Source of the DNA: an uncultured Fibrobacteria bacterium
GTDB taxonomy: Bacteria; Fibrobacterota; Fibrobacteria; UBA11236
DNA: 64,000 nt
Reading direction: 5' to 3'
Assembly: GCA_963716395.1 (NCBI GenBank)
Contig: OY970309.1
Location: 2,752,001-2,816,000, forward strand
Positions 1-34,512 of this stretch are shown here, in pieces. Position numbers and translations under genes: made by a program. The number at the start of each line of letters is the position of its first letter. Positions within the stretch are counted from its first letter, which is position 1. The notes below the pieces were generated by a model. That model saw only the letters and a program-made list of their open reading frames with translations. It made no database searches and was not told the origin of the DNA.

Positions 1-762
1 CCGCCGCGCGAAAGTCCGGTTGCCCCGGTGCCGGTTCGGTTACCCATCGTGTTTGAAGACGAAGAGTTGCTGGTGATCGACAAACCGGCCGGCTGGGCCG
101 CGCATCCCGGCACCGGCATCGCTCCGGGAGAATCGCTGATCGAGCGTGTGCAGGCCTATCTTGGCACGGATGCCAACCGGGGCGAATTGTTCCGCCCCGC
201 ACTGGTGCATCGCCTCGACCGGGAAACTTCGGGCGTGATTCTGGTCGCCAAAACCGGGGTCGCCTTGCGGCGGCTGCACGCCGCGCTGCGGGAGGGGAAA
301 ATCCGCAAACGGTATCTGGCTCTGGTGGCCGGGCATCCGCATCCTGAAGCCGGTGTGATCGACGATCCCCTGGAGCGCGTCGACAGCGCCGCGGGCGCGA
401 AGTCGCGCATCGCCGTCGCCGATGACGAAAACAGCAAGACCGCCGTGACGCATTACCGCGTGGTGAAAAAGGCCGGAACCTATGCGTTACTCCAGGTTAT
501 AATTGCAACCGGACGTATGCATCAAATCCGCGCGCATCTCGCGCATCGCGGCCATCCCGTGGCCGGCGACACGCGCTACGAACGCCCCGCGGCGGCACGC
601 GCGCGCCGGCAGGCGTTGCGGTTGCCGCGTGTGTTTCTGCACGCCGAGGAAATCTCCTGGCGCGAAACCCAAGGCCGGCGCGTCTTTCGCGCCCCCCTGC
701 CCGCGGACTTGCAGGCGGTGGTGCGCTGGTTGGAAAATGCCGCGGAGGCCGGGGCCGCATGA
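1..762 (+). CDS. RluA-family (RluC/RluD-like) pseudouridine synthase, probably 5'-truncated by the window edge
   Basis: Motifs DKPAG, HRLDRETSG (catalytic Asp), TGRMHQIR and GHPVAGD. The frame is open back to base 1. Confidence 0.9.
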   Translation, partial: PPRESPVAPVPVRLPIVFEDEELLVIDKPAGWAAHPGTGIAPGESLIERVQAYLGTDANRGELFRPALVHRLDRETSGVILVAKTGVALRRLHAALREGKIRKRYLALVAGHPHPEAGVIDDPLERVDSAAGAKSRIAVADDENSKTAVTHYRVVKKAGTYALLQVIIATGRMHQIRAHLAHRGHPVAGDTRYERPAAARARRQALRLPRVFLHAEEISWRETQGRRVFRAPLPADLQAVVRWLENAAEAGAA

Positions 763-3497
763 GCGAAACCAATCCGTTGCTGCCGCCTTCGTCGCGCTTC
801 GAGCCCGGTGCGCGGCTGGGCAAATACATCATCTTGAACGAGATCGGGCACGGCGGCATGGCCGTGGTGTACAAGGCGCATCAATCCGACCTCGATCGCG
901 TGGTGGCGGTCAAGGTGTTGTTCGGCACCATGCTGCAGCAGCGTTTCATCGACCGCTTCCAGGCCGAGGCGCGCGCCCTGGCCAAGATGAACCACCCCAA
1001 CGTCATCCGCATTTTCGAAGTGGGCGAGCAGAACGGGGTCTTCTATCTGGTGATGGAATACATCGCCGGCCAGGACCTGCTGCAATACCTGCACCAGCAC
1101 AAACCCAGCTTCGACGAGGTCATGGACATCGCCCTGCAACTCGCCGAAGCCCTGGCCTATTGCCACAAGCAGGGCGTGCTGCACCGCGATCTCAAACCCA
1201 CCAACATCCTCATGCATGAGCGCACCCCGGTGCTGATCGACTTCGGCCTGGCCAAATCCGTCGACCCGGATTTCGACGTCACCCTGACCCTGTCGGGCGA
1301 AGTGGTGGGTTCGCCGGCCTACATGTCGCCCGAGCAAGCGATGGGTCAGGCCGTGGGCGTGCTCTCTGACGTGTGCGCCTTGGGCATCATCCTGTACGAA
1401 TTGATCTCGTTCATCAATCCCTATCTCGACCCGCGTTCGCTGCATCAGACCGCCCTCAACGCCATCCGTTCCGAACCCGTGCCGCTGCGCTATCTCTGCC
1501 CGTGGGTCGACGCGGATTTCGCCGCCATCGTGGCCAAGGCCATGGTCAAGGAAACCGCCGATCGCTATCAGGATATGGATCAATTGCTCGGGGATTTGCA
1601 GGCCTTTCGCCTGGGGCAGCCCATTCTCGCCAAGCCACCGGGATGGTTGAAGACGGCGTGGCGCTTTATCCGCGCGAGCCCGGTGCTGTATCTCGGCGTC
1701 GCCTTCTTGCTGGCGCTGGGCGCGGTGGCAGGCGCTTTTCTGGTGCTCGAGAAAAAGAATCAGGAGGCGCCCTTCGGCCTGGTTTTCAGCCCGGCGTTTT
1801 CGCAGCCCGATTCCGGCGAGGAATTTCAATCCTTTGACTACAACGGCCGCTCCTGGATGCCTTCCTCCTCCTGGCGCGTGCGCAACGGACGGCTGGAAGG
1901 AACGTGCCGCGGACTGTGTTCGGCCGTCACGGATCAGGATTTTTTCGGCGACCTGCGCGTGGAGTTCACGGTGCAAGGCCTGCACGGTACGCGCGGAGAC
2001 TTCGACGCCTTTCTGCTCGGGCCCGACCCCGAAGATGCTTTTCGCTTCACTTTGGGCGAATGGGGCAGTTTGCGCGCCGGCATTGAGTTCGGTTCCTGGT
2101 CGCGTTTTCCCCATGGCGGCGCTTTGCTCAAGCTCAGTCCGGAAACGCCGTATCGCGTGACGCTGGAAAAGAGCGGCAACTATCTGCGTCTCTACGTCGA
2201 CGATACCTTGCGGGTGGAAAAGTTCTATTCCCTGCCGGTGAAAATCGAGCGCAACAGCAAAATCGGCTTCTATACCTGGAACGGCGAGGTGGCCGTATCC
2301 GGCCTGCGCGTCTATAAAAAAGCGGTGGCGCTGGCGGCCGGCCCCACGGTGGTGGCCGACGCCTACCAGGACGAAGGCTCGCTGCTCCACAGCATTCCCG
2401 CCTACCAGCATGTGATTGAGACCTATCCCGACCAGCCCGTGCGTTTCGAGGCCCATCTGAAAATGGGGAAGAGTTACATGGTGTTGGGCGACTTCGCCCG
2501 TGCGGAGCGGCAACTGACGATGGCGGCGGGCTCCACCGACCCGCAGCTTTTGCCCGAGGTGATTTTTCAGATGGCCGAATGCGACTTCAAAACCGGACAG
2601 GCTGCCGAAGGGTATGAGCGGCTGCGCCTTTTGCATTCCACGTATCCCGAATCCGACTTCAACCGCGGCGTCGTGGAATACCGGGTGCAGGCCGTGTACG
2701 ATTGTCTTGAGCATGCGGTCCGGCCCGCCGAATGCGTGCCGGGCTTCGAAGACGAGTTCCGCTTTTTGATCCGGAACGAAGATGCCTACCGCGCCCAATT
2801 CGGAACAGCCCATGCCGCCCTGCTCGACTTGTTCCGCCGCCTGGGCGTAGACGAAGCCTTGCAGAATGCGCCCGGCTTGCTGGCCTATTACGCGGGGATT
2901 CCCGAGGTATGCGCCTCACTGCGCCGCACCTTGGTACGCCGGGATATCGGGATGGGGAATCTTGCCGGTGCGCACTTGCTGCTCGACAGTGCTTCCCAGG
3001 ATGGGCCTGTCAGTCCCGCGGCTCTGGCCCGGAATGCTCTGCTCGCCGGCGAATTGCAGGTGCTGCAAGGCCGCGTCCACGAAGCGGGGCAAACCTTTTC
3101 GCGTTTGGGAGCCGAATTCGCCTCGGTGCCGGACATTCCTTTTGGCAGTTTGATCCAGGCCCAGGTCGCCCAAGCGCAAGCCGGCGAAACGCCTGCCTTG
3201 ATCGATAGCCGGTTGCTGGAAAACGATGCGGTATCCCGGCGCGAAGGCTGGTGGCTGGATTATTTGGATCACCGTATGTCTTCCGACAGTCTGCACGCTT
3301 TGTTGATCACCGCACCGGCCTCCGCTCCCGATTTGGAAGAAGTCCTGGCCGAGTACCTGCATCGCGGAGGCCCGGGCCCCGCGGGGCGGCAATATTTGCA
3401 ATCCATTCGGGCGTTGTTTCCGCCGCAGACGTTGGAAGCGGAGTATCTCGACTCTCTCCTGACCCACGGGCCGCAGCCCGCCGTTGAGGCGCCCTAA
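759..3497 (+). CDS. Membrane Ser/Thr protein kinase: Hanks kinase, TM helix, beta-rich domain, TPR-like region (PknD-like)
   Basis: GHGGMAVVY, VAVK, HRDLKPTN, DFG and GSPAYMSPEQ; hydrophobic segment VLYLGVAFLLALGAVAGAFLVL; helical TPR-like repeats in the C-terminal half. ATGA overlap with the upstream gene. Confidence 0.88.
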   Translation: MSETNPLLPPSSRFEPGARLGKYIILNEIGHGGMAVVYKAHQSDLDRVVAVKVLFGTMLQQRFIDRFQAEARALAKMNHPNVIRIFEVGEQNGVFYLVMEYIAGQDLLQYLHQHKPSFDEVMDIALQLAEALAYCHKQGVLHRDLKPTNILMHERTPVLIDFGLAKSVDPDFDVTLTLSGEVVGSPAYMSPEQAMGQAVGVLSDVCALGIILYELISFINPYLDPRSLHQTALNAIRSEPVPLRYLCPWVDADFAAIVAKAMVKETADRYQDMDQLLGDLQAFRLGQPILAKPPGWLKTAWRFIRASPVLYLGVAFLLALGAVAGAFLVLEKKNQEAPFGLVFSPAFSQPDSGEEFQSFDYNGRSWMPSSSWRVRNGRLEGTCRGLCSAVTDQDFFGDLRVEFTVQGLHGTRGDFDAFLLGPDPEDAFRFTLGEWGSLRAGIEFGSWSRFPHGGALLKLSPETPYRVTLEKSGNYLRLYVDDTLRVEKFYSLPVKIERNSKIGFYTWNGEVAVSGLRVYKKAVALAAGPTVVADAYQDEGSLLHSIPAYQHVIETYPDQPVRFEAHLKMGKSYMVLGDFARAERQLTMAAGSTDPQLLPEVIFQMAECDFKTGQAAEGYERLRLLHSTYPESDFNRGVVEYRVQAVYDCLEHAVRPAECVPGFEDEFRFLIRNEDAYRAQFGTAHAALLDLFRRLGVDEALQNAPGLLAYYAGIPEVCASLRRTLVRRDIGMGNLAGAHLLLDSASQDGPVSPAALARNALLAGELQVLQGRVHEAGQTFSRLGAEFASVPDIPFGSLIQAQVAQAQAGETPALIDSRLLENDAVSRREGWWLDYLDHRMSSDSLHALLITAPASAPDLEEVLAEYLHRGGPGPAGRQYLQSIRALFPPQTLEAEYLDSLLTHGPQPAVEAP

Positions 3498-3499
3498 AC

Positions 3500-4297
3500 A
3501 TGCGTGTTACGATGGGAGCCTGGGGAACCTGGGTGGCCGTATTGGGGGTCGCGGCCTGTCACGTCGAACCACCCGTGGCCGCGTACCAACTGTCCCGCCC
3601 CGTGCGCGGCCGCTTGGCCATCGATTTCTCGGCCGCGCGCGCCGCAGGAGACAGCACCGCCTACCATGCGCGTACCGAAGCCTGGGTGCGACTCCGGCGC
3701 ATCGATACCGCCGGTCCGTTGGCGGTGGAGTTGGAGGTGGATTCCGCGACCTGCGTCAGCCCGGGACGCAGCCCGGCCGAGATCGCTTTTGTGCGCGCGG
3801 GCTTGGCCCATTATCACGCCACCTGGAGCATGGGTCGGCAAGGGCATGTGCTCGATTTGAGTGAAACGCCGGCCTTTCCGCCCGGCGAGTTTGGATTTCG
3901 CCTAGCGCCGCTGCTCACCGCGACCTTGCCGGTGTTTTTCCCGGCTTCCGCGCCGGATAGCGCGGCGATCGATTCGCAATCGCTGTTCGACCCGGCTTCA
4001 CAGCGCACTGCACGCGTACAAAGCGCGGCCGGGCCTGATCGCCGCATGCGTACCGGCGGCGTTGCGGGCGCCCGGCATGTGGTTCTGCGGTTGGCCGACA
4101 CCGGCAGCCAGGCCATCGAATTTACCGGCGACGAGCGCTTTCAATTCGACACCGCCGTGGGTTTCCCCACCCGGATGTCCTGCGATTTGAGTGGAACTTT
4201 GCCACCGGACTCGGCTTCGCACCTCGGATTGCGCATGGATTTGCAGATCGACTTTGAAGCGCTTGAGCCTGCCCCGTCTCGCGTCGAAGACCAATGA
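3500..4297 (+). CDS. Hypothetical lipoprotein
   Basis: Signal peptide with lipobox-like VAAC; starts 2 bp after the kinase stop. Confidence 0.6.
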   Translation: MRVTMGAWGTWVAVLGVAACHVEPPVAAYQLSRPVRGRLAIDFSAARAAGDSTAYHARTEAWVRLRRIDTAGPLAVELEVDSATCVSPGRSPAEIAFVRAGLAHYHATWSMGRQGHVLDLSETPAFPPGEFGFRLAPLLTATLPVFFPASAPDSAAIDSQSLFDPASQRTARVQSAAGPDRRMRTGGVAGARHVVLRLADTGSQAIEFTGDERFQFDTAVGFPTRMSCDLSGTLPPDSASHLGLRMDLQIDFEALEPAPSRVEDQ

Positions 4298-4388: not shown

Positions 4389-5222
4389 TTGCCGACTTGG
4401 GAAAAAAGCGCGCAGACCTTCGCGATGCGGGGCCCCCCTTCGCCTGCGCCGGCGGAAAATCTTTTGGAAACGTTGTCCGGCTGGATGGAACCGCGCCACA
4501 CCTTGCTGCTGCGCGCGCTGGCCGAGGGTATGACCCAGCCTCCGCGCTTGCCCGGCGATGCCGTGCTGCTCTTGCAGTCGGGCAGCCAGTTCGCCGCCCT
4601 GCGCCGAGAAGTCAGCCTGCGTTTCGCCGAGTTTCGCGGCAAATGGAGCCCGCGCCTCGAAACCGCCGCGTTGTTGCCGTTGCTTCAGCGTAATCAATGG
4701 ATCGTGGCGTATGCGCAAGGGGGCGTGATGCTGGCCGGCAAAGGCGGCCGCAAAGAGGCCAGACTGTTGTATCTGCAAACCCTGCACGACATGGTTTCGG
4801 ACTGCGCCCGGCAATGGAGCGGCCTGGCGGGGCGATTGCACGCCAGCCAAGAGGCGTTGGCGCGCGCCTGGCAAGCACGGACGGCGTCCGGCAACGAAAC
4901 GCGCATGTTACCGGCGTTGGAGGCGACCCTGCACCACGCCGAGTATGAAGCCTGGAAGTCGGTTCGCCTGTCTTTGGGCCACCTCGCCGAAACCGCCTTC
5001 GTGGACGCCGTCAGCCCCTGGGAAGGGCGTGCCTTTGCGCGCCCGGAAACCCTGGTGCGCGATTTGCCTGCGCCCTGGCGTCGTTTCGACGGCGCCGCGA
5101 ACGGATTCATGGGCTTCATGCGCGCCGTGTCGCAACTATCCGAGGCTTTCGTTTCCGCCCTGATCGATCATTACGACGGCAAATGGGAGCTTTACCTCCG
5201 CGGTTTCGCGGAATCCACTTGA
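4389..5222 (+). CDS. Hypothetical helical protein, DUF3348/ZorF-like
   Basis: GGGGAG RBS about 10 nt before the TTG start. Segments ENLLETLSGWMEPRHTLLLRAL and RMLPALEATLHHAE...LGHLAETAF resemble recalled DUF3348 segments. Adjacent to DUF802-like and DUF2894-like genes. Confidence 0.5.
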   Translation: MPTWEKSAQTFAMRGPPSPAPAENLLETLSGWMEPRHTLLLRALAEGMTQPPRLPGDAVLLLQSGSQFAALRREVSLRFAEFRGKWSPRLETAALLPLLQRNQWIVAYAQGGVMLAGKGGRKEARLLYLQTLHDMVSDCARQWSGLAGRLHASQEALARAWQARTASGNETRMLPALEATLHHAEYEAWKSVRLSLGHLAETAFVDAVSPWEGRAFARPETLVRDLPAPWRRFDGAANGFMGFMRAVSQLSEAFVSALIDHYDGKWELYLRGFAEST

Positions 5223-5240
5223 ACCACTTTCGGGGAACGC

Positions 5241-6635
5241 ATGGAATCATCGACTTCGCACGCGCCGGAGCGCAACCCTTTCGGAATCGGCATGGCCGGG
5301 GGCCTGGTTTTCAGCCTGGCCTGCTTTATTCTGGCGGCGCTGCGCCGGCCGCCGGATCTCTATTTGTTTGGGGGCGGCGCCGGATTGGTGGCCGCCGCCG
5401 TGTTGTGGTCCTGGCGCGGGGCTTTGGCACAGTTCCGCCAGGGTTGGGAAGACATGCGCTCCACCTTGGCGCGCCTCGAAGCGCCGGCCGCGGCTCCGGT
5501 CGTGGAGGCAACGCCGTCCGAGAATGCTGACGCCGAACAGCGCCACCGCGAGGCCTTCGAAAGCCGAACCCGGCAGTTGCGGCGTGCCCTGGAAGAAGGC
5601 TTGCAGGCCGGATTCGCGGCCCTGACGCCCGGTTTGTCACAAGGTTTGGAAACCGCCACCGCGCGCCTGGACGACGGCTTGAGAACGGAGCGCGAAGATC
5701 GCGCCCGGGAGATGCGCGAACTGCAAACAACCCTTGCGCAAAGTCAGGAAGCCTGGGCGCACTTGCAAGCCGCGCAGCGCGAGGCGCATCAGCACCTGTC
5801 CGAAACCCTCCAGACGGCGCTGGCGGGTCTGCAAACTTCGCAACGCGAAGCCGCGCAGGCGGCGGTCCGCGCCTGGGAAGAGTGGCGCGCGCAGGCGGCG
5901 GCCATCGGTCAGCCGATGGCAGAGCACGCCGTGCAATGGCAAGCCGCCGCCGATCGGGTGGATGCCGCCGTGGCCGCCTTGCCCGCGGCCGTGGCCGAGT
6001 TGTCCCGGGCTTTCCGACGCGAAGCCGATGCCGAATGGAACGCCCAGTTGCGCGGATTGGCCGAAGCTTGGGACAAGATGCTGCAGGCGGCGGAGGCGCA
6101 AAGCGAACGCAGCGCCGCGTCTATGACGGTCAGGATGGAAGCGCTCGCGGCGCAAAGCGAAACCGCGCCGGCGGCGGCGGCCGAACACTTGCGGGCGGCG
6201 GCGGAGCAGGCCCAAGCCTGGCTGGGCAGCCTGCAAGCGGCCGGGCAAAAACTGGAAGGCGCCTTTGCCGGCGCGCAGCGCTTCGGCGAGGAGGCGGCCG
6301 CACATCAAGCCGACCTCAAGGCGGTGGTGGAAATGTTGGAGCGCGGCATGACCGGCGTACTCGATCGCCTGCAAGCCTTGGGCTCCCTGGGTGAAGGCCA
6401 TGCGGCGCTGCTGGAAAAAATGCACGCCTCGGTGCGCCGCTTCGAGGAACGGGCCGCGGAATTGCTCGAGGAAAATTCCTTGAAAGCCCAAGAGGCCCTG
6501 CTCGAGGTGTTGGAACGAACCGCTCCGGCCCCCGCCGAAGATGCGCCCAACGGCGATCCGGATCTCCTCGGCGCCGCCGAAGACGAGGCGCGAGCAGGCG
6601 AAGCGGTCAAAAAGGCCGAAGCGCGTGGAGACTGA
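5241..6635 (+). CDS. Two-TM, long coiled-coil protein, DUF802/ZorA(type III)-like, truncated
   Basis: Two N-terminal TM helices followed by an Ala/Gln/Glu-rich heptad tail. SETAPAAAAEHLR and RRFEERAAELLEENSLKAQEALLEVLE resemble the recalled DUF802 motifs ASEAPKAAAEV and YYVAQAREVIDLSMLSQKQIIEDL. Confidence 0.55.
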   Translation: MESSTSHAPERNPFGIGMAGGLVFSLACFILAALRRPPDLYLFGGGAGLVAAAVLWSWRGALAQFRQGWEDMRSTLARLEAPAAAPVVEATPSENADAEQRHREAFESRTRQLRRALEEGLQAGFAALTPGLSQGLETATARLDDGLRTEREDRAREMRELQTTLAQSQEAWAHLQAAQREAHQHLSETLQTALAGLQTSQREAAQAAVRAWEEWRAQAAAIGQPMAEHAVQWQAAADRVDAAVAALPAAVAELSRAFRREADAEWNAQLRGLAEAWDKMLQAAEAQSERSAASMTVRMEALAAQSETAPAAAAEHLRAAAEQAQAWLGSLQAAGQKLEGAFAGAQRFGEEAAAHQADLKAVVEMLERGMTGVLDRLQALGSLGEGHAALLEKMHASVRRFEERAAELLEENSLKAQEALLEVLERTAPAPAEDAPNGDPDLLGAAEDEARAGEAVKKAEARGD

Positions 6636-7239
6636 TTGGACCGCGTTGCGCGCATGCGTGCAGGCCGCGCCGGCCGACCTGCATCGACGCGTTTTCTTCG
6701 ATGCCTTGCTCCGTCGCGGAGAAGCCGCCCAAGCCGCCCAGCCCGCCGTGGCCCGGCATTGCCGCGACCGGGTCGAAGCTTTTTTGCAGCATACGGCCGG
6801 AACCTCGACAGCCCCGGCGGTCGCGGAACCCGGGGTAACCTCGCCGCTCGAAGGGTTGAAAAGCCGTTGGGAAGAGGCGTCCCGCCGCCGGGCCGTCGCG
6901 TTGCTGGACCGCCTGGGTCGACATTTGACTCCGGCGGAGCGCGCCGCCTACACGACCAGGGTGGCCGAAGCCCCGGCCCCCGCGCTGGCGCCGCTGCGGC
7001 GTCATCTCCAGGATCGACTGCTGCGCATTCTGGCCCGCCGGCGCGCCGGAAACCGCGAAGTTACCGGGTCGGTCGAAATCGAAGCCGGGGCGGGCCCTTA
7101 CAATGCCCGGGCCACGCTGGCGGCGGTCTGGAACCGGGTAGTCGCCGCCGATGCGGAGTGGTTGCGCGAGTGGGTGGCGCTATATGCGCGCATGCAGAAA
7201 ACTCTGCGGACCTTCGGCGCTTTGCGGCCCGAAGGGTAG
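6625..7239 (+). CDS. DUF2894/ZorG-like protein
   Basis: GTG start at 6625 overlaps the previous stop. N-terminal RRVFFDALLRRG and C-terminal AGPYNARATL...EWLREWVALY match the recalled DUF2894 pattern (RFHFIEALARR; AGPLNS...LQHFLSY). Confidence 0.62.
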   Translation: METDWTALRACVQAAPADLHRRVFFDALLRRGEAAQAAQPAVARHCRDRVEAFLQHTAGTSTAPAVAEPGVTSPLEGLKSRWEEASRRRAVALLDRLGRHLTPAERAAYTTRVAEAPAPALAPLRRHLQDRLLRILARRRAGNREVTGSVEIEAGAGPYNARATLAAVWNRVVAADAEWLREWVALYARMQKTLRTFGALRPEG

Positions 7240-7244
7240 ACGAA

Positions 7245-7994
7245 TTATCGGCTTTTGGCGGTGGGGATTCCCGAGCCGAGAAAAATGCCCGCGATGCCCT
7301 GGAATTTGCCGCCGAGGGTGAGGCCGCCCGGTCCGATGGCGTATTCCACGATATCTTTGTCGTGATCGCTGCCGCGCATTTTCAGAATCATCAGGCAGCG
7401 TTTGATCTCGGATTCCATTTCCAGGTAGCGCAGCAGAAAATAAGCGTCGACGATAAAGGGAATTTTGTTGGCGGCGGAGTTCCATTTGCCCAGGATGTTG
7501 GCATTCTCCTTGAGCAGAAGGCAGGTGGCCTCTTCGCGTTTTAACCCGTTCACCACCTCGGTTTCGATGGAGCGCAAATCGCCGACGTCGCGCGCCAGGC
7601 TTTCGAAATGCGTGATGCTGTCGACCACCACCCGGCGCGTGTTGTGCTCGCGCAGCAGCGACGCGATTTTGCCGTCGGCGTCTTCCAGGTCTTCCACGAA
7701 GTTTTCCGGTGAGGTGAACACCACCAGCAGCTTGCCTTCTTTCTGCAGTTGGCGCAAATCCCAGCCCAATTCGGCGGCGCAGTCGTAATACTGTTCGGGA
7801 AATTGCTCGAAGGCGAAAAGCATACCATGCTCGCCTTCGGCCACGCCTTGCAGGATGAATTGCAGCGCCAAGGTGGTCTTGCCGGTGCCGGCCGCGCCTT
7901 CGACGAGCACCGCCGATCCCGGCAGCAGTCCGCCGCGCAGCATGGCATCGAGACCGGCGCATCCGGTTTTCACGCGTTTGGTTTTGGTTTCCAC
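7245..7994 (-). CDS. Single-domain KaiC/RAD55-like RecA-fold ATPase
   Basis: TGCAGLDAMLRGG, Walker A GAAGTGKT, Walker B VVVDSIT, KMRG. Confidence 0.88.
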   Translation of the reverse strand: METKTKRVKTGCAGLDAMLRGGLLPGSAVLVEGAAGTGKTTLALQFILQGVAEGEHGMLFAFEQFPEQYYDCAAELGWDLRQLQKEGKLLVVFTSPENFVEDLEDADGKIASLLREHNTRRVVVDSITHFESLARDVGDLRSIETEVVNGLKREEATCLLLKENANILGKWNSAANKIPFIVDAYFLLRYLEMESEIKRCLMILKMRGSDHDKDIVEYAIGPGGLTLGGKFQGIAGIFLGSGIPTAKSR

Positions 7995-8022: not shown

Positions 8023-8976
8023 TCACAGCATGGCCGCCAAGGCCATTTCGATTTCGAAGCGGTGAAGATAGCGCCCCTGCTTCATTTCCCACTCCAAGCG
8101 GGCCAATCGGGCCAGCAAAAGTTTCCAGCGTGCCAGCGAGCGGGAGCGCGCCTGATCCAGGTATTTCTCCTTCACGATGTGCAGAAATTGATTCAGGCGG
8201 CAGGCTTCGACGATTTCGTGTTCGCCCGCGCCTTGATCGAGCAGGGTGCGGATTTTGGCCAAGGTCAAAAAGTGGGCGAACAGGCGCAGCACCACTTGAA
8301 AACCTTCGGTGCCGTTTTCGAGCAGGTTGCGCAGGGCCGGTAGAAAATCACGCGAGCGCCGCAGTCCCATGGCTTTCTGGAATTCGAAGATGGCGTAAAC
8401 CTTAAGCGGGCTGACCAGGCTTTCTATGGCTTCGGCGGTAATGGCTTCGCCTTTCGGCAAAAAAGTGTCGAGCTTTTCCAGTTCCCGATCCAATTCGGCG
8501 GTTTCTCCGCCCACGATGTCTTGCAAAAGCCGCGCTTCGGCGGCTCCCAAGCCGCGGCCATAGCGCTGGCGCGCGCGCTCCTGTAGCCAGGCGGGAATTT
8601 TGTTGTCGTAGGGCAGCTTGAATTCAAACCAGCGACCCGCGCGTTCCAGGCTTTTGGCCAAGGTGGATCGGCCGTCGATTTTTTCCGCGCTGAGAAAGAC
8701 CGCCACCTGGGGGTTGTCGTCGAGCCAGGCTTTTTCCAATACCTTCTGGCCCGCCGCAGAAACCTTGTCGTAATTGCGCAGGATCACGGCTTTGCGCGGT
8801 GCGAACAAATCGGCGCCTTGATAGGCTTCGGCGACTTGGGCCGCGTTCAGCTCTTCGCCGAAATGGGTTTCACGCACCACCGCACCGGTCTCCGAGGACT
8901 CCCAGCGGTGCAGTTCGGTGTCGAGGGCCTCGTGTCTGCGCAACTCATCGTTCCCGGCAAAAGCGAAGACGGGCAT
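8023..8976 (-). CDS. holA: DNA polymerase III delta subunit
   Basis: 317 aa; DLFAPRKAV, ELEKL and IFEF motifs fit the delta-subunit architecture. Confidence 0.85.
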   Translation of the reverse strand: MPVFAFAGNDELRRHEALDTELHRWESSETGAVVRETHFGEELNAAQVAEAYQGADLFAPRKAVILRNYDKVSAAGQKVLEKAWLDDNPQVAVFLSAEKIDGRSTLAKSLERAGRWFEFKLPYDNKIPAWLQERARQRYGRGLGAAEARLLQDIVGGETAELDRELEKLDTFLPKGEAITAEAIESLVSPLKVYAIFEFQKAMGLRRSRDFLPALRNLLENGTEGFQVVLRLFAHFLTLAKIRTLLDQGAGEHEIVEACRLNQFLHIVKEKYLDQARSRSLARWKLLLARLARLEWEMKQGRYLHRFEIEMALAAML

Positions 8977-8990
8977 GGTGCTTCTGCGGT

Positions 8991-9464
8991 TCAGCGGTAA
9001 TTCAAAATTTCGAGCTTCAACTTGCCCTTGGGAATTTGCACTTCGACCACGTCACCGGGCTTGCGCCCCATCAGGCTTTTGCCGATGGGCGAAGCGCTGG
9101 AAATTTTTCCCAGGTTGACGTCTACTTCTTCGGAACCCACCAGGGTGTATTCCACCACATTGTTGTTGCCCAGGTTTTTCACCGACACCACCGCCCCGAA
9201 AATGATGCGGTCGCTGCCGCCCGGGTTCGCGGTGACGATTTCGGCACGCGCGATTTTGTCTTCCAGCTCCTGGATTTTGTCTTCAATCATGCCCTGTTTT
9301 TCTTTGGCCGCATGATACTCCGCATTTTCGGACAAATCCCCCTGCTGGCGCGCCGCGGCGATCTCCGCGATGATTTGCGGCCGGTCATTCTTCTTGAGAA
9401 ATTCCAATTCCTGCATCAGCTTTTCATAAGCCGGTTGGCTCATTGGCAGTCTGCCGTCTGACAT
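8991..9464 (-). CDS. greA: Transcription elongation factor GreA
   Basis: GDLSENAEYHAAKE and ISSASPIGKSLMG; ATG at 9464 gives 157 aa. Confidence 0.96.
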   Translation of the reverse strand: MSDGRLPMSQPAYEKLMQELEFLKKNDRPQIIAEIAAARQQGDLSENAEYHAAKEKQGMIEDKIQELEDKIARAEIVTANPGGSDRIIFGAVVSVKNLGNNNVVEYTLVGSEEVDVNLGKISSASPIGKSLMGRKPGDVVEVQIPKGKLKLEILNYR

Positions 9465-9687
9465 AGAAAACTCCCAGGCGAAAGCCCTAACAACGAACAC
9501 GGGCCTTGCGGCCCGCATTCAAACGGATTTAAACCTCTCCGTAGCTTGTCTAGAAAATAAACCCCTTTCCGCCTTATGGCCATCGGTTTTGTCCGGGAAG
9601 TGTGTAATTGTTCATTTCTGCAGGCCGGTTGTTATTTTCCCGCCCCAAAACACAGTTCGTTTTTCCGAAAACTTCGAAAGTGAAATT

Positions 9688-10863
9688 ATGCATGACGTAT
9701 CCTTTCCGCTGGGATTCAAGGCTGGCGGCACGGCTTGCGGGATTAAGAAAAACGGCCGACCCGATCTCGGCTGGATTGTCAGTGATCCTCCAGCGACGGC
9801 TTTGGGCGCGTTGACGCAAAACACCGCGGCGGCCGCGCCGGTGCGGTATTGCCGCCAGGTCTTGGCTTCGGGAGCCAAGGTTTCGCATGTGGTGGTGAAC
9901 AGCGGTAACGCCAATGCAGCCACCGGACCGCAAGGCGATGAAAACGTGTCGGCCACGGCGTCACATTTGCGGTCGGTCGCCGCAGTCCCGGGCGCGGTGT
10001 TGATTTGCTCCACCGGCGTGATCGGCGAGCCTTTGCCCATGGAATCGCTGCGGCGCGGCATCTTGGCTTTAAGTGCGGCAGCCACGGCCGATTTCGTGAC
10101 GGCCATCATGACCACCGACACTTTTCCCAAAACCGCGCAGACCTCCCTGAGGTTCGGCGATCGTGAAGTGCGTCTTGGCGGCGCGGCCAAAGGCGCGGGC
10201 ATGATATGCCCCAACATGGCCACCATGCTCGGCTTCGTCACCACCGATCTCGAATTGGATGCGGATTACCGGCCCCGGTTCCTGCACGTCGTGGATCGCA
10301 GTTTTAATTCCATCACGGTCGATGGCGATACCAGCACCAACGACACCGTCTTGTTATTGGCCAACGGCGCGTCCGGAATCCGCTATGTGGATCTTTCCGC
10401 GGCCGATCGCGATTTGTTCGACGGTGCCTTGTTGCAGCTCATGCGTCAGTTGGCTCAGGCCATTGTGCGCGACGGCGAAGGCGCCACGCATTTCATTTCC
10501 GTCGCCGTGCGGGGCGCGGCTTCGGAGGCCGACGCCAAGGCCGCGGCGCGGGCGGTGTCGAATTCCCCCCTCGTCAAGACCGCCTTCTTCGGCGGCGACG
10601 CCAACTGGGGGCGTGTGCTGGCGGCGGCCGGATATTCCGGCGCCGCGTTGGACCTGAACCGACTTTCGCTGGAGTTCTGCGGCGTCAAGGTGTTTGCAAA
10701 CGGCGCGCCCCTGCCGCGCGATGAAGAGGACCTGGCCCGCCGCATGCAGGCCAAAGACGTTTCCGTGAAGCTGGATTTGGGTCGGGGCGAGGCCGAATGG
10801 GTTTATTGGACTTGTGATTTCAGTTACGACTACGTGAAGATCAACGGCAGCTATCGGAGTTAA
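9688..10863 (+). CDS. argJ: Bifunctional ornithine acetyltransferase/N-acetylglutamate synthase
   Basis: NSGNANA, IMTTDT, KGAGMICPNMATML, DGDTSTNDT, DGEGA, NWGR; ATG at 9688. Confidence 0.96.
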   Translation: MHDVSFPLGFKAGGTACGIKKNGRPDLGWIVSDPPATALGALTQNTAAAAPVRYCRQVLASGAKVSHVVVNSGNANAATGPQGDENVSATASHLRSVAAVPGAVLICSTGVIGEPLPMESLRRGILALSAAATADFVTAIMTTDTFPKTAQTSLRFGDREVRLGGAAKGAGMICPNMATMLGFVTTDLELDADYRPRFLHVVDRSFNSITVDGDTSTNDTVLLLANGASGIRYVDLSAADRDLFDGALLQLMRQLAQAIVRDGEGATHFISVAVRGAASEADAKAAARAVSNSPLVKTAFFGGDANWGRVLAAAGYSGAALDLNRLSLEFCGVKVFANGAPLPRDEEDLARRMQAKDVSVKLDLGRGEAEWVYWTCDFSYDYVKINGSYRS

Positions 10864-19262: not shown

Positions 19263-19421
19263 CGTACATGCCAATTTTAGCAATAATGTTAGATTCCCCA
19301 ACGATGTCTCGGTTACTTCCGCTTCGGACCGGCCTGAAGTCGAAGAAACCATGGCTTTTCCCGACCAGCTTTTCCTGTTCCCGAGGTCGCAAAGGCCCCA
19401 AGGAGATTGGGTGACGCATCT

Positions 19422-22400
19422 ATGAAAATATGGATGGTGGGCCTGGCCCTTTCTCTTTTCGCCCTGCAAGGGGCTTTGGCCTGTGGAACCAACGGCGACA
19501 CGGTGATCAACGTTCTGGCACTCGCCGGTTATGTCAGTGGAACCAATTCCGGAACCCTGAACCCGGCCACGGCCTTGAACTCCCTCTTATCGACGTCGGG
19601 TTGCACCGACACCTCGTTGACGATCCATTTGCGTTCTACGGTCGACACCCTCAAGTTACACGGTCCCATCATGGTGGCCCGCACCAACGGCAATGGGCGC
19701 ATCACCAGTTTTGTGGGCGAAGTGGGATTGGCTTCTCCGTATCGCTCACTAATTATTGTGGAAGACAGTTCGACGGCACCCACCGCCAATGGCGGACAGG
19801 GCTATTTATTCGATGCCACCAGCCCGGTGCAATTATCCGGATTCACGGTGCTGCGCATGGTGAACAGCCCCACGCTGAGACTACCCGCCATCATGTTGCG
19901 AGGCGGCAAGGGATCGATGGTTTCGGGTTGCCAATTCTGGTTGCAAGACGTCACGACCGCGAGTTACCCTCCGCCGTCATTGATCGAAATCAAATCCGAC
20001 AGCGTTTTGATCGAGCGCAGCCTGTTTCGTTCTCCGGCCGGCGGCACGGGGTATGGAACCGCCATTTTCGACTCCAGCAGCGGGACCAAGGTCGAAATTC
20101 GCGCCGACGTCTTCAACAATACCGGTGTGGTCGTGGGGGCCGGTCAATTCCACCTCTACGCCAACACCTTCGTGGGCACGCGCGATCGATATTCTCCGGT
20201 GGTCGTCTTTGACGCCACGGTCCCCAACGCCGATTCGGCCAATATTCAGCACAATCTGTTCGCGGTGCAGAACGACACCTTGCCCCCCATCGATTTTCGC
20301 GGAACTCCGGTGCCCTCCTCGGCGCCGAATGTGATATACAATGCTTGGACAAGTTCCCGCGACTCTTTGGAGTTGACGATGAGTGGGGCCGGGCCTTATA
20401 GCGAGGTTACATCCAGCCTGATTAACAACATTTTGATGCCCAAAGGCTTTTCCAATTACGGCGCCGCCGTGGCGGTGAAAGATTATCCCTTGGTAGAGTT
20501 ATCCAGCAATCCCACTTTGTCGCCTTCAGACCCGACCTTCGGAGAGTTGGCGAAAATTTACGCCGGGTATCCACATTCTTTATCCCACGGCCAGGCTTTC
20601 CCCGAAATCGATTCGGATTTGACGGCCGCTAAATTGTTTTTCCCCAACAACTTTCAACCCTACGTCTCCACCCCCACCTGGGGTGACAATGACATCAAGG
20701 TCGGTGCCTTCAGCGCGGTCGATGCTAACGATCCGCGGCCCAGCCCTATCAATCTACGGGCCCACAACCCCTCCGAGGCCACAAGCCTGCACTTCGCACC
20801 CCTGTCCGGTGACCCGACCAAGATCAGCCAAATCACACGCGTCTTCGATACCAGTTATTACGGAGCGTTTTTCGCGCCCAATCTTCGACTCTATTTTTTC
20901 AGCCCCACCCGCACCGACTTGAACGCCGCCGACTCCACTTCGCTGAAAACCGCCACCTCCAACGATTATACCGGCATCACCGGCGGATGCTGCGCTTCGC
21001 CCGATACCGTGAGTGTACCCCGGCAGGCGCGCGTGGCCGTGGCGCCCGGGCAAACCGAAACCCTGTATCTCAAGCTGTTGCACTACAACGGCACGGGTCA
21101 GGCGGTGATTGAAGACCCCAACGCCGTGGTGGACACCGTAACCGCGGTGCCGGCCTACCCGTTCAATGATTTGACCCTGAGCTATCTCGACACTACCGGC
21201 TTGGCCTCGGGGCAGGTGACTCTAAACGTCGCGCTGGGGAAAGAAGCGCCGGATTCGATTCGCGTCTATGAATTGGATGCCTCCAATGCGGTGGTCGACT
21301 CTTCGGTGCCGGCCCATGCCGTAACCGGGTCAAAGACCTTCGCCTTCAACAATGTGCCGGCTGGTCTGTATCATTTCGCTGCCGTGCCCATCGGCCTGGG
21401 CCGCCTCGGCGTGAAAACCGCCGGCGCCATCACGGCGGCCAAATTCTTCCGGCAAATCACCGGCGATACCGTGTATGTGAGCATTCCGGCGGGCACCTGT
21501 CCAACTGGCGCCAATGGTTCGGCCCAGTCGCCGTATTGCACCCTGGCCGCCGGGCTGAGTTATTTGCAAAGTCTTTCCCAAGGCGTATTGATCATCGATG
21601 CGGCCAGCCAGCCCATTCAAGACGCCGTCATTGCCACGGGAAGCGGCCCCAGCGGCAGTCTGACCATTACCTCGATGGTGGATACCTCCGGCAAATTCCC
21701 TCTGAACCGGCCGATTTTCTCCGACAGTACCGGCGGCGTGGCTTCGGCTTTGACCATCAGCCGTTCCAACGTGACTATTCAAGGCGTCGTTTTCCAAATG
21801 CCGCCTGCGACGAAGCAAGCCGCGGTGTCGGTTCAAACCGGAGGCACGGGCGTCGTGCTCGAAAGCAATTTGTTCCGTTCTACGTCGCGTTCCGGTTTGG
21901 TGGGCACCGCGCTCAGCCTGGGAGCGGCTTCGGGTCATGTTTCCAATAACGTATTCTGGGGCTTTTCCAAGGCCATCAATATCGCCAATGCTTCGCCGTC
22001 GTTCTGGATTACCGAAAACACCTTTCTCAATGATTCGGCCTTCACCGGTTTCGCCCAGGCTGCGGCCATCTCGGCCTCGGTTTCTGCCGTCGGCACCCGT
22101 ATCTTCCACAATTTTTTCGCCGATTACACCGCGCCCTTTGACGCTTCTTTCAAAGGGGGCACCGATACCCTGGCCGGCAATGTGTATACCGCCCCGGCCG
22201 ACGCCAATCTGCTGCAAGGGCATGTCGAGATTCGTCTTATGGCGACGGCCAATCCCATCCCGATCAAGGATCTCAGCGCCGCGAATTACGGCAAGAGCCT
22301 GAGCGATTCGGTGTTTTTACCCCTGGAAAATTGCAATCAACTCGTAGAATGCTCTCCCCTCTACGCCGGTGCCAATCCGGGCGCGTATGAATCCTCTTTG

Positions 22401-25205
22401 GGCTATACCGCGCCGGCCATCGACTTTTTCGGTAACTCGCGCCTGAGCGCCGGGCGCCCGGAAATCGGGGCGTATGAATTCCAGAACAAGGCCCATTCCG
22501 TACTCGGGCGATTGCAATTCACGGTGGGATTCGGCAATTCCTTTTCTCAGGCGAATGTGAATCTCTCTTCCATGAACATCGATTCCCTGGACGCCGATTC
22601 GGTGTCGGTATGGTGGTCGACGAATAAGTCCGACGTGTATTCCGCGGTGCCCAAGGCCAATCAATTGAGTTACCGCGTTGCCACCCTTGAAATAGGGGAC
22701 ACCATCCAAGGCAAGGCCTCTAATCTTTTGCCCAACGTGACCTATTGGTTCCACAGCCAACTCCTGAAGGTGGGTGCGGCCAGCGCCGGGTACATTTACA
22801 CCCAGTCGTTCCAAAGCGATTCGCTACTCACCTCGTCTTCCTGCGACTTGGCGACGACCAAGGGAGTTTGCCCTTCCGAGGCCGGAACCGAAGGGTATTT
22901 CATCGATACCACCAGCGGCCCCTTCAAAGGCTTGTACCGGACTCGCATCGTATTCAATACCGCGACTCCCGGCAACGGCACCGTACAGGCACCCATATTC
23001 TTGGTGCCCGATAGCAGCCGCTTACATGGGCTGACGGCGGCCGCCAATGCCCCCATGATTCGACTTCAGGTGCAAACGACCGGGAATATGGGGCAACCGC
23101 AGAGCAATGAGGGCTATCAGGTGACCGTGGTCGGGCTCTCGTCCCTATCCTCGACCTTGGCCGCCAACGACCTTTATTTACTGCCCTCGGCTTCGGGGGG
23201 ATTGCCGACCTATCTCAGCGATTGGTCGTTCGATACTACGGGAAACCTGACCATCCAACTGCACAGCCAGGGCACCTTGGATTTGGTGTTCGGGAAATTT
23301 CCGTCCACTGGCGGGGGAACCGTGGGGCCCGCCTCCACCAACCTTCAGACCTACGACTATGACGGCGTGGCCGCGCAAACCTTTAAATGGCCTTTGCAGG
23401 GCACTTCGTTCCGCACCGCAAATCCTCTGATTCTGGCCACGCCTGTGCCATGTGGGGGCGTGACCGGCAAAAGCGTGATTTCCAGTGCCTATCCCGTGCA
23501 GAGCGACCTGTTGTCTTCGGGCCTCATCGCGTCGGTGGGCGACAGTCTGAAATATGCGACCGCCCTTGCCTATTACCGCCGCGTCGTTTCCGCCGATTCC
23601 ACCGCGGCCTTTTTCGCCCATCAGAACAGGGCGTTTCACTTGAATGCCGTGGCCAGCGCGTCGGATCTTCAGGCGGCCGTGCAGGTGGACAGCCTGTCGA
23701 TGGACAATTCGGGAAACGCTTCACCCACGATGCAATTGACATTCGGAAAAACCTGGAAGTCGGTATCGGATCAGGCCACGCGCGGCGTCGAAGTGATTCT
23801 CACCGTCTTCGACGGGGGCGCCGTAAGCTATGGCCACGTCTTCTTGCAGACCAAGTTCAGTCAAGCGGATCTCGGGCCGCAGGATCAAACCGTTCAATAC
23901 CCTGTCCACCTATGGAATTTGTATACCTATCCCTGGCAGGAAGCGCCGGGCGGCGACATCTCCCGCGTGGTCGGTTCGAATTCGTTTAACCCTCCGAATC
24001 AAAAAGTGCTGAGCTATAAGGGTACGGGCGAAGGCCAAGACGCCTACACGGTTATCAACGCCACGACTTTTTCTTCCCTGACCATTGATTCCGGCCGCGC
24101 CTTCTGGAGCGGCAACGGCGACGCGCCTTACAAACCCAATACCGCCGGTGGATTTTCCCTGGACAACGGCGACTTTAGCCTGTCGCTGACCGCGGGGCAG
24201 TACAACGATTTCGGAACGCCTTTCAATTTTTCCGTGAAACTCCAGGATGTGCTCGACACCTCGGGCCTCGGGGCCGGCAACTTGGCCATTTACCGACTGG
24301 ACTATACCGGGGACAAGGCCGGATGGACGCGGATGGATGCGACGAAAAGTTCCTTGGGGGTCTTAAGCCCTTGGGTGGGATATACCGTCAAACCGGCCGC
24401 CGCCGTGAGTTTGAAATTCCCCTTGATCGACACGGCGCGGTCGACCACGCCGTTGGCCAAAAAAGCCGGGACAAATGCCGTGGCCTGGCAGGCTGATATC
24501 CAGGCGTCCGACGCGGCAGCCATCGCCACCTTGAGCTTGTCCAAAGGCGCGCGCGCGCAACAATACGGCGAAGCGCCGCAAGTTCCCGGCCAGACCTTTC
24601 GCATCGGTTTTGCTGCCGGGGGTGGCGATTCGCTGGCGAGCGAAATCGAAGATCCGGCCGCGGCCGGATTGCAAGGACATTGGCCGTTGGAGATCAAACC
24701 GCAAGACGGCTTTACGGGATTGGATTTGCAATTGCATCAAAGCACGGGCAAGACAGCGCTGTTTTTGGTGGAAACCATGAGCCGTCAGATCACGCCCTTG
24801 ACGGATTCGACCTTGCATCTCACCCCCGCCGACGTGTCGGGAGGGGACTACAACGTCGTGGCCGGTACGGCGCAATATGCCCAGGACTTCCTGAATTCGG
24901 TTCTAGGGGCTTACGATTTACGGCTGGTGAATTTTCCCAACCCGTTTACGGGTTCGACTTCGATTCGTTTCTCCTTGCCGTCGACCGTCGCGACGGTGGC
25001 GTACCGCCTGCGGGTGTTCGATTTCCAGGGGCGCCTGGTGTGGGAGAAGACTTGGAACGGCGGAGCCTCGTTGAATACGACCTGGGATGGCCGTAACCGG
25101 TTGGGCGAGATGGTTCCGGCCGGACAATACCATTTGCTGTTGGACGCCCAGCCCGAGGGTAAGCCGGCTTTCGAAGCCCGCCGCAAACTCATCAAGCTGG
25201 ATTGA
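19422..25205 (+). CDS. Large secreted/surface protein (~1927 aa): beta-helix modules and a C-terminal FlgD-Ig/T9SS-like sorting domain
   Basis: Signal peptide; NGSAQSPYCTLAAGL beta-helix cap; DFFGNSR...EIGAYE motif; C-terminal NFPNPF...VFDFQGRLV...WDGRN...AGQY. Confidence 0.8.
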   Translation: MKIWMVGLALSLFALQGALACGTNGDTVINVLALAGYVSGTNSGTLNPATALNSLLSTSGCTDTSLTIHLRSTVDTLKLHGPIMVARTNGNGRITSFVGEVGLASPYRSLIIVEDSSTAPTANGGQGYLFDATSPVQLSGFTVLRMVNSPTLRLPAIMLRGGKGSMVSGCQFWLQDVTTASYPPPSLIEIKSDSVLIERSLFRSPAGGTGYGTAIFDSSSGTKVEIRADVFNNTGVVVGAGQFHLYANTFVGTRDRYSPVVVFDATVPNADSANIQHNLFAVQNDTLPPIDFRGTPVPSSAPNVIYNAWTSSRDSLELTMSGAGPYSEVTSSLINNILMPKGFSNYGAAVAVKDYPLVELSSNPTLSPSDPTFGELAKIYAGYPHSLSHGQAFPEIDSDLTAAKLFFPNNFQPYVSTPTWGDNDIKVGAFSAVDANDPRPSPINLRAHNPSEATSLHFAPLSGDPTKISQITRVFDTSYYGAFFAPNLRLYFFSPTRTDLNAADSTSLKTATSNDYTGITGGCCASPDTVSVPRQARVAVAPGQTETLYLKLLHYNGTGQAVIEDPNAVVDTVTAVPAYPFNDLTLSYLDTTGLASGQVTLNVALGKEAPDSIRVYELDASNAVVDSSVPAHAVTGSKTFAFNNVPAGLYHFAAVPIGLGRLGVKTAGAITAAKFFRQITGDTVYVSIPAGTCPTGANGSAQSPYCTLAAGLSYLQSLSQGVLIIDAASQPIQDAVIATGSGPSGSLTITSMVDTSGKFPLNRPIFSDSTGGVASALTISRSNVTIQGVVFQMPPATKQAAVSVQTGGTGVVLESNLFRSTSRSGLVGTALSLGAASGHVSNNVFWGFSKAINIANASPSFWITENTFLNDSAFTGFAQAAAISASVSAVGTRIFHNFFADYTAPFDASFKGGTDTLAGNVYTAPADANLLQGHVEIRLMATANPIPIKDLSAANYGKSLSDSVFLPLENCNQLVECSPLYAGANPGAYESSLGYTAPAIDFFGNSRLSAGRPEIGAYEFQNKAHSVLGRLQFTVGFGNSFSQANVNLSSMNIDSLDADSVSVWWSTNKSDVYSAVPKANQLSYRVATLEIGDTIQGKASNLLPNVTYWFHSQLLKVGAASAGYIYTQSFQSDSLLTSSSCDLATTKGVCPSEAGTEGYFIDTTSGPFKGLYRTRIVFNTATPGNGTVQAPIFLVPDSSRLHGLTAAANAPMIRLQVQTTGNMGQPQSNEGYQVTVVGLSSLSSTLAANDLYLLPSASGGLPTYLSDWSFDTTGNLTIQLHSQGTLDLVFGKFPSTGGGTVGPASTNLQTYDYDGVAAQTFKWPLQGTSFRTANPLILATPVPCGGVTGKSVISSAYPVQSDLLSSGLIASVGDSLKYATALAYYRRVVSADSTAAFFAHQNRAFHLNAVASASDLQAAVQVDSLSMDNSGNASPTMQLTFGKTWKSVSDQATRGVEVILTVFDGGAVSYGHVFLQTKFSQADLGPQDQTVQYPVHLWNLYTYPWQEAPGGDISRVVGSNSFNPPNQKVLSYKGTGEGQDAYTVINATTFSSLTIDSGRAFWSGNGDAPYKPNTAGGFSLDNGDFSLSLTAGQYNDFGTPFNFSVKLQDVLDTSGLGAGNLAIYRLDYTGDKAGWTRMDATKSSLGVLSPWVGYTVKPAAAVSLKFPLIDTARSTTPLAKKAGTNAVAWQADIQASDAAAIATLSLSKGARAQQYGEAPQVPGQTFRIGFAAGGGDSLASEIEDPAAAGLQGHWPLEIKPQDGFTGLDLQLHQSTGKTALFLVETMSRQITPLTDSTLHLTPADVSGGDYNVVAGTAQYAQDFLNSVLGAYDLRLVNFPNPFTGSTSIRFSLPSTVATVAYRLRVFDFQGRLVWEKTWNGGASLNTTWDGRNRLGEMVPAGQYHLLLDAQPEGKPAFEARRKLIKLD

Positions 25206-34131: not shown

Positions 34132-34512
34132 ATGCCCAGCGTCAAACTGCGCACCGTGATCGGATGGATGCTGCTGGTGATGACGGTATCGGCCTTTTTG
34201 CTCGGCGTGGTGTGGAAGCAATACACCTTTGTGGCCGAGTCGCGCGCGCTGCTGCGCGGAGAACAGGATCGCGAGCGGTTGCAGAACGCGGTGATGCTGC
34301 TGGAAACTCAGGTGCGCGCCCTGCGCCGGCCCGAACGGCTGGAGAAGTTGGCGCGCACGCGCTTCGGGCTCATCGATCCCGGACCTCCGGTGGCGGTGCA
34401 GCCTGAAGGCCAGGTGCTGGCGGACGGCGCGGGGCCGCAGGTGGCGGCGAATAAAAATTTGCAGGCCGCGCGCGGGCCGGAGGTGTTCGGGTGGCGACTC
34501 GGCGGTTGGTAG
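34132..34512 (+). CDS. ftsL: Cell division protein FtsL
   Basis: TM plus coiled coil ending PERLEKLARTRFGL; located between rsmH and ftsI. Confidence 0.8.
   Translation: MPSVKLRTVIGWMLLVMTVSAFLLGVVWKQYTFVAESRALLRGEQDRERLQNAVMLLETQVRALRRPERLEKLARTRFGLIDPGPPVAVQPEGQVLADGAGPQVAANKNLQAARGPEVFGWRLGGW

Follow-up and report, generated by a model that had tools for sequence, protein, structure and literature searches.

A probable motor-less descendant of a type III Zorya-like gene cluster in the core chromosome of Fibrobacteria

In this study, we analysed a 64,000-nucleotide stretch of the chromosome of an uncultured Fibrobacteria bacterium (assembly GCA_963716395.1, contig OY970309.1, forward-strand positions 2,752,001 to 2,816,000; hereafter the window) and focused on three tightly packed plus-strand genes, here called A, B and C, which occupy positions 4389-7239 with all frames intact. 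On balance, we favour the view that this locus is a motor-less, vertically inherited descendant of a cluster resembling type III Zorya, in which protein B would be a membrane tether with A and C docked on it. The evolutionary part of this view, namely descent from a Zorya-III-like four-gene module with joint loss of ZorB and of the channel, is very probable from the comparison of sequences. A ZorB-less, channel-less cluster derived from type III Zorya appears to be new: no description of a ZorB-less Zorya derivative was found in the paper listings and passages searched, which cover little of DUF3348, DUF2894 or Zorya in Fibrobacter.

In type III Zorya, the zorAB pair lies between a gene for a DUF3348 protein (ZorF) and one for a DUF2894 protein (ZorG) (Payne et al. 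2021, PMC8565338; PMC11890865). All Zorya subtypes are considered to share ZorAB as an invariant core, from which the present locus departs. In PADLOC-DB (PDLC00652-00658), the names are the reverse of those in the literature, the DUF3348 models being called 'ZorG3|ZorG' and the DUF2894 models 'ZorF3|ZorF'. Since the two sources are swapped in this way, we refer to these proteins by their DUF numbers.

Organisation of the locus

The frame of gene A is open from a TTG at 4389 (4389-5222, plus strand, 277 residues), and the protein-database form starts at ATG 4425 (4425-5222, 265 residues). After a gap of 18 nt comes gene B (5241-6635, plus strand, 464 residues, TGA at 6633-6635). The longest open frame of gene C spans 6541-7239 on the same strand, and its start is most likely the GTG at 6625 (6625-7239, 204 residues), since both the database form and the similarity to orthologues begin there. 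This start overlaps the end of B by 11 nt, and the B-C junction has no space for an OmpA/MotB gene. Open reading frame analysis thus bears out what an earlier note, made from the letters of this DNA alone, had described: three packed genes on one strand with intact frames, the third starting inside the second, and no OmpA/MotB gene at the locus.

The same three-gene layout, for which the note had suggested a search in other genomes, was seen in 8/8 loci of congeneric species. Moreover, a soil-metagenome run, either independent or the source itself, contains a 151-nt contig that crosses the B/C junction (two DNA contig runs were compared, each covering parts of the stretch only). Together, these observations argue that the layout is neither a chance pattern of open frames nor a local misassembly. 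In one congeneric locus (L019 of genome G001), A and B are spaced by about 1.9 kb (8709-10633); they are adjacent in the other loci of the genus that were checked. A scan of the locus for promoters and terminators gave no signal exceeding that of shuffled sequences.

Four-gene relatives with a complete motor

As a reference for type III Zorya we used the locus on the megaplasmid of Ralstonia pseudosolanacearum GMI1000 (NC_003296, 1859073-1863215). It encodes a DUF3348 protein of 246 residues, a DUF802 protein of 698, an OmpA protein of 215 and a DUF2894 protein of 219, all four with strong Pfam and PADLOC scores. Among 55 further proteobacterial type III loci, ZorB was recognised in 54, ZorG in 54, ZorA in 53 and ZorF in 50; the misses correspond to contig ends, and the locus without ZorB is a 2.5-kb contig fragment.

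Orthologous clusters of four genes, A-B-X-Y, exist closer to the window. They were found in all ten complete loci of families f3, f5 and f8, of which f3 belongs to the window's own order and f5 and f8 are related families of the same class. The proteins measure about 300 residues for A, 546-632 for B, 212-223 for X and about 220 for Y, and each of the ten loci has a MotA core in B and an OmpA protein as X. The f5 relatives look like Fibrobacter, judging from a Fib_succ_major domain in a neighbouring gene.

The OmpA domain of X is recognised at E ~1e-16. Over its full length, X matches best the PADLOC ZorB3 model (PDLC00651, E 1e-39 to 2e-50), with scores far above those of ZorB1 (E 1e-16 to 1e-26) or ZorB2. 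It also aligns end to end with proteobacterial ZorB3 (33-38% identity, hhalign P 3e-41) and shares with it an invariant tryptophan and the invariant aspartate of the transmembrane segment. Likewise, the long B proteins (about 600 residues) match best the PADLOC ZorA3 models (E 3e-13 and 1e-12), across both the channel region and the tail, and their MotA/ExbB signature helices (LLGLMGTFFGLM ... GIFGTSLCG) align with those of ZorA3. The kinship with the type III gene order that the earlier note had proposed is thereby upheld, as the four-gene form survives in related families.

Loss of ZorB and of the channel helices

Protein B of the window is a membrane-anchored helical protein that resembles ZorA3 minus the cytoplasmic loop and both channel helices. 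Hydropathy and alignment place an N-terminal transmembrane hairpin at residues ~16-58 (5286-5414, plus strand). The hydropathy scan gives one clear segment (16-34), the second stretch (~40-58) being read by eye, and the hairpin corresponds to the first two transmembrane segments of ZorA3 and of the orthologues that have four. Alignment with these four-segment orthologues indicates that about 140 residues are gone from B between the hairpin and the tail, and that these comprise the cytoplasmic loop and both channel helices. B retains the hairpin, a ~300-residue helical stalk and a conserved tip (residues ~355-425; 6303-6515, plus strand). The tip is its best conserved part (most strongly at residues ~361-420), with a mean column identity of 0.32-0.49 vs 0.16-0.23 elsewhere in the protein. 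As the loop and a hairpin were removed and the N-terminal hairpin was kept, the tail of B should still face the cytoplasm.

In agreement with this deletion, the window's B has no match to PF01618 (MotA_ExbB) or to a hidden Markov model of the MotA core, and the DUF802 repeat was also not found in it. Three PADLOC ZorA3 models gave E 0.004-0.012 within the helical tail, with no passing stretch. JetC and BrxC models behaved alike, and we take all these hits as noise of the coiled-coil type. Since its MotA/ExbB channel helices are lost, B no longer has what defines a ZorA protein.

The loss extends beyond the window. X is absent from all 20 loci of families f1, f2 and f4 in which the gene after B is readable, and the MotA core is missing from B in all 21 loci of these families that have B (L132 included). 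We also counted ZorB3-like genes genome-wide (cut-off E<=1e-30). None was found in f1 (0/31 genomes, a tally that, like all those for f1, includes the unpublished genome G276), in the window's own genome, in f2 (0/6) or in f4 (0/12). Such a gene is present in 1/1 genome of f3, in 2/2 genomes each of f6, f7 and f8, and in 133/151 genomes of f5.

An ancient and recurrent deletion

Gene A was found in 202 of the 296 genomes of the phylum, where it covers essentially the whole of one class and is almost always single-copy. By family, it is present in 30/31 genomes of f1, 6/6 of f2, 1/1 of f3, 12/12 of f4, 147/151 of f5, 1/2 of f6, 2/2 of f7 and 2/2 of f8; none was detected in families f9-f21, which lie outside the window's class. 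Across the class, A, the tip of B and C/Y have orthologues that stand next to one another in this order, to which the window conforms. The window itself is core chromosome, with SHMT, Dus, argJ, holA and greA, and with the dcw cluster (ftsA, ftsZ) 25 kb away. A-B-C adjoins holA-greA-argJ in 8/8 loci of the genus, and likewise in other genera of f1 and f2.

A further reduced form occurs in genus g23, inside the otherwise stator-bearing family f5. All three of its loci lack X and a MotA core, and the proteins are shorter (A 245-254 residues, B 180-228, Y 174-185). This mini-B has one transmembrane helix, proline-rich repeats and the conserved tip, which is the sole part of the tail that is kept. 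In two examples (L136:5358-6044 and L138:5519-6061), it carries tandem 'PKIEIP'-like repeats and has A and Y as its neighbours, the OmpA gene being absent.

A quick tree of gene A places g23 inside the clade formed by f5 and f8 (SH-like approximate likelihood ratio support of 100), and an approximately unbiased test rejects a single clade of all 23 stator-less rows (p 0.0021). The motor was thus lost at least twice, and taxonomy together with the maximum-likelihood tree suggests three losses. The deletion is ancient and recurrent, not recent, which disposes of the recent deletion or misassembly that the earlier note had named as grounds for abandoning its idea; the layout shared by all eight congeneric loci speaks in the same direction.

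Possible relationship of C and A to the type III flanking families

Gene C (6625-7239, plus strand) encodes an all-helical protein of 204 residues that is the orthologue of Y and probably a remote relative of DUF2894. C and Y form one family, linked by BLAST and by profile searches and united in one alignment of 30 sequences. In this alignment, G157, Y159 and N160 are the sole invariant columns, within the GPYN motif (G157, P158, Y159, N160; 7093-7104, plus strand), and a DPxW(V)xDFLxLY segment follows. The AGPYN...EWLREWVALY motif that the note had read by eye is indeed present in C, and its link to DUF2894 emerges only by profile-profile comparison.

With custom alignments, hhalign matches C/Y to DUF2894 (PF11445) over the full length (P 8e-6, 84%, 160-182 columns), the reversed and five shuffled controls giving P of at least 0.06. 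With the alignments built by the tool itself, the match covers 48 columns over the motif (P 7e-4, 26%), and the cross-family controls gave P 0.084 and 0.11. In both families the same element is aligned, GPYN...DPxWVxxFLxLY of C/Y with the invariant GPLNS...SPxYLxxFLSY of DUF2894.

PF11445 itself was matched in 0/296 genomes of the phylum, and the window's complete genome holds one sub-threshold match to it, elsewhere than at the locus. The AlphaFold model of C (predicted local distance difference test score, pLDDT, 86) had no PDB match, and ESM Atlas gave no usable look-alike. A word-indexed homologue search with C found only C itself, and the same search with B found one relative. In 3/8 loci of the genus, C is shortened to 134-153 residues (L014:7624-8061, L017:6839-7243, L018:2210-2671). 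The N-terminal half is gone from these forms, and the C-terminal half with GPYN is kept.

Gene A (4425-5222, plus strand) encodes a soluble all-helical protein at the DUF3348 position of type III Zorya, and both its position and its size match the type III DUF3348 protein. Its profile aligns weakly with DUF3348 (PF11828) over 150-163 colinear columns (hhalign P 0.005 and 0.0016, controls 0.06-0.6). Against 1.84 billion representative sequences, the profile of the A family matched only 72 clusters, and the word-indexed search retrieved 44 close relatives of A, all without Pfam domains. PF11828 and PF05650 are unmatched in the window's complete genome. The AlphaFold model of A (pLDDT 91) is an elongated helical bundle, for which no PDB match exceeded the noise level for helical bundles. 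Its ESM Atlas look-alikes (best score 0.81) are unnamed clusters, none of them usable. Sequence searches of the PDB with the A, C, DUF3348 and DUF2894 profiles yielded nothing below E 0.008.

We consider it likely that C is DUF2894-like and lean towards A being DUF3348-like, in large part because of their conserved position and size beside ZorA3- and ZorB3-type genes. The profile comparison that the earlier note had called for therefore had a mixed outcome: direct searches with the Pfam and PADLOC models failed, the profile-profile comparison gave a signal above controls for C, and its signal for A was weak.

Neighbouring genes

Immediately upstream of A, a gene at 3500-4297 (plus strand) encodes a putative lipoprotein of 265 residues, with a signal peptide ending in ...VAAC. 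It has no Pfam hit and is absent from some f2 loci; it could be an accessory outside the conserved core. A chain of BLAST matches (2e-5, then 7e-12) links it to a gene of about 279 residues that, in the Fibrobacter-type relatives, stands two genes before the cluster and scores 26.3 bits on DUF6263 (cut-off 26.7). In these relatives, this DUF6263-like gene is followed by a right-handed beta-helix (NosD-like) protein (L119:6294-7846). The conserved neighbourhood may extend beyond four genes and may have a link with the envelope.

Two genes upstream of A, at 759-3497 (plus strand), lies a Ser/Thr kinase of 912 residues with TPR repeats, which is kept in several f1 genera. Its kinase domain matches many PADLOC PD-T4-6 models (E to 3e-74), which we read as generic kinase similarity. 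On the other side, a KaiC/RecA-like ATPase of 249 residues (7245-7994, minus strand) converges on the end of C with 5 nt between them, a position kept in f1 and f2. Further away, a plus-strand open frame of 1932 residues (19407-25205) has a coding-like GC content at third codon positions and no Pfam match at E<=1e-5; the frames at 30512-32554 (680 residues) and 34308-36278 (656 residues) likewise have no Pfam match at this cut-off.

Proposed function and alternative explanations

We propose that the ancestral cluster would have encoded a protein at the DUF3348 position, a ZorA3-like protein, a ZorB3-like protein and a DUF2894-like protein. The ZorB gene was lost together with a ~140-residue segment of B that holds the cytoplasmic loop and the two channel helices. 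B would now be a passive membrane tether presenting its tip domain, on which A and/or C would dock to carry the output without ion-driven rotation. This docking of A and C is a part that we infer with more doubt than confidence. Since the genes are intact and under purifying selection, across at least two families, and sit in a core, syntenic chromosomal region, the locus would be a functional, motor-independent derivative, neither decaying nor misassembled.

A motor-less form maintained by selection is unexpected, because type I Zorya needs the proton motive force, ZorB and the tail. The locus and its relatives make up a natural deletion series, from the full motor to hairpin, stalk and tip, and then to a single transmembrane helix with the tip. 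Both helper proteins are kept under selection in all three forms, which suggests that the functional interface is the tip of the tail, and the series indicates that the helpers can be useful without rotation. A more speculative idea is that the protein at the DUF3348 position, the DUF2894-like protein and the tip of the ZorA-like tail form an autonomous module with no need of the ion-driven motor. In this class, the module would have become, or would always have been, a core cellular function, and the motor would be a dispensable input, discarded at least twice. If true, defence may not be the primary role of type III 'Zorya' clusters, and the natural deletions would map which part of ZorA contacts the partners.

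Several observations weigh against our proposal of a motor-less Zorya derivative. The profile signal between A and DUF3348 is weak (P 0.002-0.005), and neither A nor C is matched by Pfam, NCBIfam or PADLOC at E<=10. At the same Pfam cut-off, DUF3348 was found in 0/39 members of the A family and DUF2894 in 0/14 members of the C/Y family, and no DUF3348 protein was among the 12 weakest or odd-sized matches checked out of the 72 to the A profile. For C, the P-value against DUF2894 varies 100-fold with the alignment used. The similarity of the whole B to ZorA3 tails (P 2e-6) is equalled by a reversed control (P 7.5e-7) and is therefore not evidence, since the control scores the same, and the comparison of the B tip with the ZorA3 tip is not significant (P 0.04 vs 0.03 for the reversed sequence). 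The statement of the earlier note that all three proteins carry family motifs is consequently not supported as it stands. RNA data were sought for the locus and none were found, and neither A nor C showed a recognisable enzymatic or binding domain. To this are added the unpublished genome counted in the f1 tallies, the conjectural nature of the docking, and the saturation of synonymous divergence described below.

The strongest competing explanation, which we nevertheless consider unlikely, is a working anti-phage derivative of Zorya that fires without a stator, for example by sensing membrane perturbation through the transmembrane hairpin. A canonical type III Zorya, that of Stenotrophomonas, conferred phage protection on E. 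coli and is the only system tested according to the excerpt of PMC8565338. In type I, the tail of ZorA is needed to pass the signal to soluble effectors (PMC11946911), and the window keeps a tail, its tip and both soluble partners under selection. However, gene A is near-universal, almost always single-copy and fixed among housekeeping genes, whereas Zorya subtypes are differentially distributed among strains (PMC11890865), as is typical of defence systems. Moreover, rotation driven by the proton motive force is essential in type I (PMC11946911), and neither in A nor in C was a nuclease or another kind of effector domain identified. Anti-phage defence islands are patchy and strain-variable and often sit in variable or mobile regions, a pattern that the window's cluster, with gene A in 202/296 genomes and fixed neighbours, does not follow. 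As the cluster is near-universal, almost always single-copy and syntenic in the core chromosome, a housekeeping or envelope-linked role is more likely than a mobile anti-phage system.

It is very unlikely that the three genes are an unrelated, lineage-specific operon whose resemblance to Zorya is a coincidence between helical proteins of similar sizes. Such a reading would account for the lack of any curated model matching A or C and for the compositional nature of the coiled-coil similarity of B. It conflicts with the orthologous clusters, which score best on the ZorA3 and ZorB3 models specific to type III, with a gene order and sizes as in the Ralstonia reference locus, and with the alignment of C/Y to the DUF2894 motif, well above controls.

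Nor do we give much credit to the idea that the genes are inert, slowly decaying remnants of a broken system. The defining parts of the motor are gone, and C evolves fast (30-49% identity within the genus), being shortened at its N-terminus in 3/8 loci of the genus. Yet frames are intact in 20/20 readable loci of the three families f1, f2 and f4. In addition, A, B and C are under purifying selection, with the proportion of nonsynonymous differences below that of synonymous ones (pN < pS) in 18/18 pairwise comparisons within the genus. The corresponding rate ratios (dN/dS of 0.06-0.19 for A, 0.13-0.36 for B and 0.19-0.43 for C) are rough because dS is saturated. Throughout the class, both the B tip and the GPYN motif of C are conserved, and independent losses each left the same reduced set in place.

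Finally, a stator borrowed from elsewhere, a possibility raised in the earlier note, can practically be set aside: the genome does have seven MotA_ExbB and nine OmpA domains, with one adjacent pair about 1.2 Mb from the locus (at ~1.5606-1.5620 Mb), but B lacks the two helices that line MotB/ZorB in 5:2 motors (PMC11946911) and so offers no interface to a stator, the MotB of this pair, which is the best ZorB3 candidate in the complete 3.75-Mb genome, is generic (77 bits vs >190 bits for orthologues), and no ZorA-like MotA protein with a long tail was found elsewhere in this genome. The adjacent pair consists of a MotA-like frame of 270 residues and a MotB-like protein of 290 residues (C1:1560606-1561993). 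Altogether, we retain as the preferred reading a motor-less, vertically inherited derivative of a Zorya-III-like cluster.

Comparison with known Zorya systems

Among the closest counterparts of the locus are the four-gene clusters of the Fibrobacter-type relatives (L110, L119 and others), whose A, B tail, B tip and C/Y are orthologues of those in the window. These loci have four transmembrane helices in B, a ZorB3-like gene and an extra beta-helix gene upstream, and the window lacks all three. The comparison with type III Zorya follows the same line. From the Ralstonia locus (246, 698, 215 and 219 residues) through the four-gene relatives (about 300, 600, 216 and 221) to the window (265, 464, none and 204), the order of the genes is the same and the sizes are comparable, apart from the missing gene. 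The ZorA of type III combines a MotA/ExbB channel with a long tail; the orthologues of f3, f5 and f8 have this channel, whereas the window's B is without it. In type III, the gene after ZorA encodes ZorB, a peptidoglycan-binding MotB/OmpA protein with an aspartate in its transmembrane segment; in the window, B is followed directly by C. Towards the C-terminus, C/Y has in common with the type III DUF2894 protein the motif GP-x-N ... (D/S)P-x-(W/Y) ... F(L). In its distribution, type III Zorya is patchy, while the window's cluster is near-universal and syntenic across the whole class.

With the ZorA5B2 motors of types I and II, as described in PMC11946911 and PMC11890865, the locus shares a long cytoplasmic helical tail on a membrane domain, with soluble partners encoded alongside. 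In type I, this tail passes the signal of the motor to the soluble effectors, and the proton motive force, ZorB and the tail are all essential (PMC11946911). The partners in these types are ZorC, ZorD and ZorE, whereas those of the window are helical proteins, and the rotor-stator interface has been deleted. Since the ZorA channel and ZorB are both missing, the window's locus is best described as a variant derived from Zorya rather than as a member of it.

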